Origin: a virus | Lineage: Duplodnaviria > Heunggongvirae > Uroviricota > Caudoviricetes | IMG/VR virus record: IMGVR_UViG_2529293142_000020 | Reading direction: 5' to 3' (one strand) | DNA length: 41,055 nucleotides | In this document: in pieces, positions 17,695 to 17,934 of the stretch | Layout of the letters: each line of letters begins with the position of its first letter | Position numbering within the stretch: the first letter of the stretch is position 1 | Position numbers and translations under genes: made by a program | The notes under the pieces: generated by a model | What the model saw: the letters and a program-made list of their open reading frames with translations, nothing else | Database searches by the model: none | Told to the model about the DNA's origin: nothing

Positions 17695-17770
17695 GGCCCT
17701 TTAGCTCAGTGGTGAGAGCGAGCGACTCATAATCGCCAGGTCGCTGGTTCAAATCCAGCAAGGGCCACCA
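17695..17770 (+). tRNA. tRNA with anticodon CAU (ileX-like tRNA-Ile2; Met cannot be excluded from sequence alone), CCA encoded
   Basis: Cloverleaf folded by hand: acceptor GGCCCTT/AAGGGCC, D-arm GCTC..GAGC, anticodon loop CTCATAA, T-arm GCTGG-TTCAAAT-CCAGC. Confidence 0.8.
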
Positions 17771-17771
17771 A

Positions 17772-17847
17772 CCGCCACTAGCCATCAGGAAAGAGCGTCA
17801 ACCCTTTAAGTTGAGTGTGCGAGGTTCGAGTCCCCGGTGGTGGTCCA
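17772..17847 (+). tRNA. Degenerate tRNA-like gene (anticodon loop CCTTTAA with C at position 33; weak D-stem), CCA encoded
   Basis: Acceptor CCGCCAC/GTGGTGG with one G-U pair, T-loop TTCGAGT, anticodon stem TCAAC/GTTGA; D-stem has two mismatches; identity unresolved. Confidence 0.45.
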
Positions 17848-17860
17848 TTATCGGTATTCT

Positions 17861-17934
17861 GCGTTGTTAGCTCAGCAGGACAGAGCAATTGCCTTCTAAG
17901 CAATCGGTCATTGGTTCGACTCCAGTACAACGCG
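17861..17934 (+). tRNA. tRNA-Arg (anticodon UCU), no encoded CCA
   Basis: Acceptor GCGTTGT/ACAACGC, D-arm GCTC..GAGC, anticodon arm ATTGC-CTTCTAA-GCAAT, T-loop TTCGACT. Confidence 0.8.

Follow-up and report, generated by a model that had tools for sequence, protein, structure and literature searches.

This study concerns a cassette of three tRNA genes in a 41,055-nt stretch of DNA (hereafter the window) from a Caudoviricetes virus (IMG/VR record IMGVR_UViG_2529293142_000020). By ARAGORN, the window contains exactly three tRNA genes, all on the plus strand at 17695–17935, which agrees to within one nucleotide with the interval 17695–17934 given in an earlier reading of the same DNA (the original prediction).

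17695–17770, plus strand: ileZ-like tRNA-Ile2 gene, anticodon CAT at 17728–17730, CCA encoded (ARAGORN)
17772–17847, plus strand: degenerate middle gene of the argN/Arg(UCU) family, anticodon TTT, CCA encoded (ARAGORN call: tRNA-Lys(ttt))
17861–17935, plus strand: argO-like tRNA-Arg(UCU) gene, anticodon TCT at 17895–17897, no CCA encoded (ARAGORN)

The two outer genes are recognised by every predictor consulted. The Rfam tRNA model RF00005 (gathering score 29 bits) gives 72.5 bits for the ileZ-like gene and 65.4 bits for the argO-like gene, and the Prokaryotic Genome Annotation Pipeline (PGAP), which served as a proxy for tRNAscan-SE calls, annotates tRNA-Ile and tRNA-Arg in near-identical genomes. 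The flanking CAU and Arg(UCU) tRNAs of the original prediction are thus borne out. The middle gene, packed 1 nt 3′ of the ileZ CCA and 13 nt 5′ of argO, had no RF00005 match, and so did not reach the gathering score, although 341 nt were searched with a cut-off as loose as E ≤ 10; the sole clan match at the gene in that search was to tRNA-Sec (15.7 bits, E = 1.8). The predictors are therefore split on the middle gene: ARAGORN accepts it, whereas Infernal/Rfam and PGAP do not, so that the proposed check with tRNA predictors upheld the outer two genes and gave a divided answer on the third. The cluster is 87–89% identical over ∼330 nt to clusters annotated tRNA-Ile/tRNA-Arg/tRNA-Arg in phages carrying Shiga toxin 2 (Stx2 phages) and is therefore not a chance match. 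We consider it quite probable that this lambdoid prophage cassette consists of two working rare-codon tRNAs with a pseudo-tRNA between them. The analysis shows its anatomy, homology, order of lesions, predictor scores and folding energies. The argO gene of the window has U50:G64 in the T stem (17909) instead of the usual C50:G64, which is still a standard pair; T at 17909 occurs in just 1 of 138 related loci.

The weakened D stem and the C at position 33 that had been noticed in the middle gene can be read directly from the letters. The gene reads CCGCCAC TA GC-C ATCAGGAAA GAGC G TCAAC CCTTTAA GTTGA GTGTG CGAGG TTCGAGT CCCCG GTGGTGG T CCA. The anticodon loop CCUUUAA lies at 17803–17809, with C33 at 17804 and UUU at 17805–17807. 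One base is missing between 17782 and 17783 with respect to all intact relatives, and because of this loss the D stem has just two regular pairs, G10:C25 and C11:G24, short of the canonical three to four; at the third pair there is a C·A mismatch or, if an A is bulged out, C:G. The T stem contains an A51·C63 mismatch (17822/17834) and the discriminator is U73 (T at 17844). No damage is seen in the acceptor stem (with a G3:U70 wobble), anticodon stem or T loop. U33 is near-universal among tRNAs and forms the U-turn (PMC2275089).

Single-gene minimum free energy (MFE) z-scores were uninformative, as even good tRNAs neither folded to the cloverleaf nor scored strongly, and constrained cloverleaf energies were therefore compared. 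The cloverleaf of the window allele has −15.4 kcal/mol, ∼8 kcal/mol worse than its non-cloverleaf MFE of −23.3 kcal/mol. An intact allele with the same C33 and UUU anticodon (the C33 allele, see below) gives −22.3 kcal/mol against an MFE of −25.0 kcal/mol, and for canonical relatives the cloverleaf is itself the MFE structure (−25.8 and −27.0 kcal/mol).

Identity features for both arginyl- and lysyl-tRNA synthetase are missing from the middle gene. C35 is the major identity element for arginyl-tRNA synthetase; the middle gene has U at this position (17806), and the canonical relatives L265 and L266 have C35 (L-numbers label the related loci and contigs that were compared, L001 being E. coli E2865). 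The identity set of E. coli lysyl-tRNA synthetase (LysRS) comprises U34, U35, U36 and A73, and changing A31-U39 to C31-G39 in tRNA-Lys lowers lysine acceptance ∼100-fold (PMC1483225). The middle gene has the three anticodon residues (TTT, 17805–17807) and lacks the discriminator A73, carrying U73 instead; its 31:39 pair is C31:G39 (17802/17810) rather than A31-U39.

Origin and decay of the middle gene

A scan of IMG/VR for the anticodon arm of the middle gene returned more than 120 contigs. In the majority, the D stem (GCTC/GAGC) is intact, the acceptor stem reads CCGCCAC/GTGGCGG, and copies of host thrU (Thr UGU) and glyT (Gly UCC) follow in place of argO. This intact C33 allele scores 44.4 Rfam bits and is annotated as tRNA-Lys by PGAP. 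Among 5426 complete E. coli genomes, 956 contain a relative of the middle gene, which fall into the following classes of identity to the window allele.

At least 99% identity (the identical D-deleted allele): 222 genomes; no PGAP annotation
95–99% identity (mostly the intact C33 allele): 535 genomes; PGAP tRNA-Lys in sampled records
90–95% identity: 11 genomes
80–90% identity (argN): 188 genomes; PGAP tRNA-Arg in most sampled records

The C33/UUU allele is found in about one-seventh of the complete E. coli genomes. Deeper relatives were sought among GTDB species representatives, which yielded only E. coli and Shigella flexneri, and because the relatives are confined to these two there is no deep conservation to assess.

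The same backbone with a residue other than C at position 33 is rare, being present on 4 IMG/VR contigs and 7 metagenome contigs. Backbone relatives with an Arg(UCU) loop, CUUCUAA or UUUCUAA, are found at L265, L266, L267, L270, L272, L273 and L275, and those with U33 and a Lys(UUU) loop, CUUUUAU, at L242, L274 and L276. These canonical backbone relatives have U33, perfect stems and covarying acceptor stems, and score 53–58 Rfam bits. They align to the window gene with 68 matches, 8 mismatches and 1 gap (68/77) and have the same D loop, anticodon stem (TCAAC/GTTGA) and T loop as it; they likewise follow ileZ directly. Three changes separate the C33 allele from them, namely U33C, C35U and U63C, the last turning A51:U63 into A·C; the sub-lineage of the window adds the D-stem deletion. 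By these alignments, the middle gene descends from a canonical tRNA-Arg(UCU)/argN-family gene via the widespread C33/UUU allele, and is homologous to argN without being an argN. A simply decayed argN(UCG) was considered and rejected, since relatives with the same stems have canonical Arg(UCU) or Lys(UUU) loops. Apparent compensatory changes with respect to argN are present at 27:43, 30:40 and 7:66; they reflect old divergence between functional lineages and are therefore not evidence of structural selection now.

Rfam scores fall stepwise along this series, from the canonical relatives through the intact C33 allele to the window allele, which has no match. In nine canonical relatives, which were picked as intact sequences, 100% of 189 stem cells are paired, 6 pairs show double changes, and the covariation score is 0.272 compared with 0.150 in shuffles (0/500). 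Ten distinct C33 alleles contain no double (compensatory) change and do not differ from shuffles; their variation is all one-sided (to G:U) or pair-breaking. No undamaged C33 gene was found in front of argO: each copy there has either suffered the D-stem deletion or lost its anticodon arm. The anticodon arm is lost altogether in the Ile-X-argO arrays L012, L049 and L054 (X denoting the middle gene), which have gained further lesions. The intact allele was assessed in 100 Ile-X-Thr-Gly arrays selected on 22 nt of X, in which nucleotide diversity is 0.029 for the C33 gene, 0.005 for ileZ and 0.012 for the Thr gene. Most of the C33-gene diversity is one haplotype (C4U, U8C, C11U), U8C being carried by 25% of copies, and relaxed constraint on the intact allele is for this reason not proven.

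The fate of the middle position was also followed in 74 complete arrays that form an unbiased sample anchored on ileZ, among them the following types.

Ile-Arg(UCG)-Arg(UCU): 43 of 74 arrays
ileZ, an unrecognised 80–101-nt remnant missed by ARAGORN, argO: 15 of 74 arrays
Ile-'Lys'-Thr-Gly: 5 of 74 arrays
Window type: 2 of 74 arrays

Almost all of the sampled arrays keep argO. As ileZ was the search anchor, its retention is uninformative and only that of argO is informative. Thus, in the cassette downstream of the antiterminator gene Q, argO persists, whereas the middle gene has decayed again and again in independent ways, and AUA and AGA decoding can therefore be argued to be the selected function. 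The pattern argues that the middle position is dispensable or subject to fast turnover, with anticodon shifts among Arg(UCG), Arg(UCU) and Lys(UUU).

Several dead middle forms were encountered. The commonest is the 80-nt element CCGCCATTAGCTTATCAGGAAGAGCAGACGACACGATAACAGGGTTGTTGGTGCGGGGGCGGGTCCCCGATGGCGGTCCA (L011, L016, L018, L023, L026 and others in IMG/VR), present in ∼15 of 80 sampled contigs; its acceptor stem is still that of argN, the anticodon arm and T loop are replaced, and it receives no ARAGORN call. L245 and L251 carry a chimera of the argN 5′ half and the argO 3′ half, joined at the shared anticodon-loop sequence GCCTTC, which leaves a single non-functional hybrid gene after ileZ. 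L244 is entirely without a middle element, as are these two chimeras.

In the Ile-X-Thr-Gly arrays, the Thr(UGU) and Gly(UCC) genes (L146:1489–1642 and relatives) are essentially identical to host thrU and glyT, and matches to thrU/glyT are present in 5421 of 5426 E. coli genomes. The near-identity to the host genes suggests that these arrays captured part of the host thrU-tyrU-glyT-thrT operon, from which tyrU would have been removed. At L151:3480–3555, L165, L177 and L181, a thrU-like gene with G35 changed to U forms a second, canonical-looking tRNA-Lys(UUU) of 74.2 Rfam bits, a further change of anticodon within these cassettes.

Annotation of the middle locus is inconsistent. The depositors of prophage PPompW label the cassette tRNA-Met/tRNA-Lys/tRNA-Arg, and PGAP gives only tRNA-Ile and tRNA-Arg in near-identical cassettes from E. 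coli that produce Shiga toxin (STEC), serogroups O26, O111, O103 and O145. The locus thereby appears under three labels: D-deleted and called tRNA-Lys (PPompW), intact C33 and called tRNA-Lys (PGAP), and D-deleted and unannotated (PGAP). The descent from Arg(UCU), together with the missing LysRS identity features, suggests that the label tRNA-Lys is doubtful.

Genomic setting and transcription of the cassette

The surroundings of the cassette contain the following features.

15543–15902, plus strand: late-gene antiterminator Q gene, 119 aa (PF06530 Phage_antitermQ, E = 1e-45, profile positions 2–112 of 118)
15972–17462, minus strand: three open reading frames (ORFs) of 109, 81 and 303 aa, a 1.6-kb module between Q and the cassette
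17550–17570 (to 17578 with the T run), plus strand: intrinsic-terminator-like hairpin 5′ of the cassette, 8-bp stem AAACCCGCATCAAGCGGGTTT followed by TTTTGTG (terminator scan)
17657–17685, plus strand: sigma-70-type promoter TTGCAA-17-TATTAT, ending 9 nt 5′ of the mature ileZ end (promoter scan)
17951–17968 (to 17978 with the T run), plus strand: strong intrinsic-terminator-like hairpin 3′ of argO (terminator scan)
18079–18540, plus strand: TerB/TciA-like ORF, 153 aa (PF05099 TerB, E = 1.4e-13; phrog_632 'tellurite resistance', E = 1e-64)
18709–18895, plus strand: small RNA STnc100 (Rfam)
19633–20025: P21-type holin (PF04971)

The cassette has its own promoter and terminator. The hairpin 3′ of argO has a 7-bp stem with 6 G-C pairs, GGCTCGCTTTTGCGGGCC, followed by TTTTTTGTAT. 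Of 260 related arrays, 258, including that of Stx2 phage PA42, have a TTGNNN-16/17-TAT(T/C)AT motif equally far upstream; the upstream 50-mers of the 260 arrays represent 53 distinct sequences. Since it is bounded by its own conserved promoter and a terminator, the cassette looks like a self-contained transcription unit, as judged from these predicted signals. Late transcription dependent on Q may in addition read through the cassette; this link is inferred because the pR′ promoter for this Q was not located, one weak promoter-like site being found at 15871–15900. The hairpin at 17550–17570 could be tR′.

As the original prediction had it, the cluster lies downstream of Q, with the minus-strand module intervening. 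None of the three ORFs of this module has a Pfam match, and the module is not present in the closest phages, PPompW and phage Evi, whose homology to the window begins at ∼17563. For the 303-aa protein, matches were obtained to PDC-S42, a candidate defence family of PADLOC (E = 3e-53), and to NCBIfam LAPAL_fam 'putative phage structural protein' (225 bits), but none to Pfam, and it has no relative in the PDB; the 109- and 81-aa ORFs correspond to PHROGs of unknown function. Downstream, the TerB-like gene indeed follows the cluster where Stx phages carry stx, and no stx is present. The region homologous to this ORF is annotated tciA/tciB in phage JLK-2012. In E2865, a non-O157 STEC, the gene is a pseudogene with an internal stop (L001:6503–6931); the 153-aa ORF of the window is intact. 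Four tandem STnc100-like copies (77–132 bits; L242:2265–3380) lie downstream of the canonical Ile-Lys(UUU) pair in L242. Elsewhere in the window, Rfam identifies the sok antitoxin RNA of a hok/sok module at 12034–12209 (plus strand) and DicF at 4312–4363 (minus strand), and an IS256-type transposase gene (Mutator family, PF00872) is located right after hok/sok in the early/nin region (12457–13665, plus strand).

Proposed function and alternative readings

The ORFs of the window use ATA, AGA and AGG at 7.9, 6.9 and 5.3 per 1000 codons, ∼2–4 times the typical E. coli values, and early genes use the three codons more than late genes (e.g., ATA 10.4 vs 6.0). This count agrees with the expectation that the cassette supplies tRNAs for the rare AUA and AGA codons, and codon use in the window fits a codon-supplementation role. 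Such a role has been proposed for phage tRNAs of this kind (PMC7946995, PMC3636060).

From their canonical structure and conservation we infer expression and function for the outer tRNAs; the middle one is taken to be non-functional. The cassette would be transcribed from its own promoter, and probably by late read-through too, into a three-unit precursor, from which RNase P and 3′ trimming would release tRNA-Ile2(CAU) and tRNA-Arg(UCU). The former would read AUA after lysidine modification, and the latter AGA and, by wobble, AGG; together they would make up for the scarcity of such tRNAs in E. coli, the phage genome being richer in those codons. The middle segment would probably be misfolded and degraded, its transcript being unlikely to adopt a tRNA fold, accept an amino acid or read codons. 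An ancestor of the Arg(UCU)/argN family acquired U33C, C35U and U63C to give the C33/UUU allele, the D-stem base was then lost in the sub-lineage of the window, and the gene may have been carried along by sitting inside a useful cassette. The original prediction had left the choice between a pseudo-tRNA and an unusual functional tRNA undecided; the evidence favours the former.

Several observations weigh against a dead middle gene. Both ARAGORN and the depositors of PPompW call it a tRNA (tRNA-Lys), and nothing is damaged in its acceptor stem, anticodon stem, T loop or CCA end. Even with the deletion, one can still conceive of a 3-bp D stem in which A23 is bulged out, and A51·C63 might represent a transition between the A:U and G:C pairs of its relatives. 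The intact C33 allele is common (∼535 of 5426 genomes at 95–99% identity) and passes Rfam with its 44.4 bits. Apart from the U8C haplotype, the C33 gene in the 100 arrays has no obviously greater number of disabling singletons than its neighbours.

In one alternative, the middle gene would be a functional non-canonical tRNA-Lys(UUU), shifted in its anticodon, whose altered anticodon stem-loop evades nucleases such as PrrC or PARIS AriB, so that Lys decoding continues during infection or induction. We regard this as unlikely. The CCUUUAA loop equals that of E. coli tRNA-Lys (lysT, CUUUUAA) save at position 33. The U36-A37-A38 motif needed for N6-threonylcarbamoyladenosine (t6A) is present (PMC13276492). 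AriB recognises U36AAUC|A41, and U39A abolishes cleavage (PMC12409363); positions 36–41 of the middle gene read UAAGUU, which differs from the AriB site UAAUC|A. Loop mutations have been proposed to let phage tRNAs evade anticodon nucleases (PMC10264068), and the idea is established (PMC11464382). The intact C33 allele is frequent and is both called tRNA-Lys by PGAP and scored at 44.4 bits, L242, a relative that has U33 and perfectly paired stems, qualifies as a clean Lys(UUU) tRNA, and the intact-allele arrays also carry Thr(UGU), another AriB target (PMC12409363). However, the window copy has the D-stem deletion, has no RF00005 match and has a cloverleaf energy that exceeds its MFE by 8 kcal/mol. 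The uridine of the U-turn is lost through C33, the T stem has the A51·C63 mismatch, U73 replaces A73, and C31:G39 is the pair associated with a ∼100-fold loss of lysine acceptance in tRNA-Lys (PMC1483225). The C33 lineage moreover shows no compensatory changes, U8C is carried by 25% of its copies, and sister copies are without the whole anticodon arm. Nor is the Thr(UGU) gene of these arrays an escape variant, because its sequence is essentially that of host thrU and keeps the AriB site.

A broader form of the same idea is that the C33/UUU allele is a selected, anticodon-shifted phage RNA, acting either as a Lys surrogate or as a decoy for PrrC, RloC or PARIS AriB; to this too we assign a low probability. 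C33 and the altered 39–41 stem would then be escape features, and the D-deleted form of the window would either still act as a decoy or have been lost recently. The window copy, whose D stem is broken, is the member of the C33 lineage least likely to be active. If a nuclease-evading or decoy role were true, the element would be a temperate-phage counterpart of the anti-PARIS tRNA of T5.

It is similarly improbable that the middle element is kept as a non-decoding RNA, either a processing spacer for RNase P/RNase E or a decoy or sponge for a tRNA-directed enzyme. RNase P mainly reads the acceptor/T-arm minihelix, and the middle gene retains the 7-bp acceptor stem, T-loop sequence and CCA while being tightly packed between ileZ and argO; a remnant of 80–101 nt is also kept in most arrays rather than cleanly deleted. 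However, the remnants are structurally unrelated among arrays, comprising the rearranged 80-nt form, the anticodon-arm deletion and the argN/argO chimera, which argues against a conserved RNA function. The element is wholly missing in some arrays (L244 and the chimeras L245 and L251), and no covariation specific to an alternative fold was found. Finally, although one of the two predictors, the permissive ARAGORN, is the one that calls the middle gene, an origin of the gene or its D-stem deletion in faulty sequencing or assembly, or in a chance resemblance to a tRNA, is effectively refuted, the 76-nt sequence being identical in 222 complete E. coli genomes and many IMG/VR contigs, the D-stem deletion not lying in a homopolymer and the homology to argN-family genes spanning the full gene length. 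Two functional outer tRNAs around a pseudo-tRNA thus remain the preferred interpretation.

Comparison with known tRNA cassettes and phage tRNAs

The cassette is a well-known, ordinary and already catalogued element of lambda-like E. coli prophages, the identical sequence being present in hundreds of genomes. What the present analysis adds is the origin of the middle gene, an Arg(UCU)-derived C33/UUU allele that has decayed further, its inconsistent annotation, and the conserved cassette promoter. Among the papers searched, none named ileZ, argN and argO together and none dealt with a C33 prophage tRNA-Lys.

One of the closest known counterparts is the Stx2-phage cluster (933W type; PA42 and phiXuzhou21-Stx2a were compared). 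In PA42 and phiXuzhou21, it consists of tRNA-Ile(CAT), tRNA-Arg(TCG) and tRNA-Arg(TCT), followed by stx2A and stx2B. Gene order and the site between Q and the lysis genes are common to both. The homology to the ileZ-argN-argO cluster that was originally proposed holds in alignment with PA42 (KP682387): the ileZ genes are identical (76/76), argO aligns with 71 matches, 4 mismatches and 2 gaps, and the middle gene aligns to argN with 60 matches, 16 mismatches and 1 gap. The promoter is conserved (TTGCAG-17-TATTAT in PA42), and STnc100 lies downstream in both, in PA42 downstream of stx2. In contrast to the Stx2 cluster, the middle gene of the window is not tRNA-Arg(UCG), has the CCUUUAA loop and fails the tRNA covariance model; the TerB/TciA-like gene replaces stxAB; and the Q gene is of another type and is separated from the cassette by the 1.6-kb module.

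Among prophages, PPompW of E. coli O157:H7 (LC567822) has the same cassette with the same 76-nt D-deleted allele followed by argO; it differs in carrying ISEc20 after the cassette and in being without the module at 15,900–17,563 of the window. The 401-bp region of the window is 99.5% identical in the E2865 prophage, and near-identical cassettes (99.5%) are present in prophages of O26, O111, O103 and O145 STEC strains. The Ile-'Lys'(C33)-Thr(UGU)-Gly(UCC) arrays found in other prophages of E. coli and Shigella (e.g., L146 and L268; phages vB_EcoM-606R7 and PhiR47_1) share the ileZ, the promoter and the C33/UUU allele. Their allele, in which the D stem is intact, is one mismatch and one gap away from the window gene and is followed by copies of host thrU and glyT rather than by argO.

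The lambdoid phages SfI, Sf6, ST64T and P21 carry tRNA-Asn(GUU) and/or tRNA-Thr(UGU) at the same site downstream of Q (PMC3636060). These two, together with Lys(UUU), are exactly the tRNAs cleaved by PARIS AriB (PMC12409363); that tRNAs at this site match the AriB targets is a coincidence perhaps worth noting. The tRNA-Lys(UUU) of T5 is canonical and charged, and experimentally rescues infection in the face of PARIS AriB (PMC12409363, PMC11464382, PMC10264068). Like it, the middle gene of the window is phage-borne, has a Lys anticodon and carries substitutions at positions 39–41 read by AriB. It departs from the T5 tRNA in its C33, its U73, its C31:G39 pair, the mismatch in the T stem and the broken D stem.

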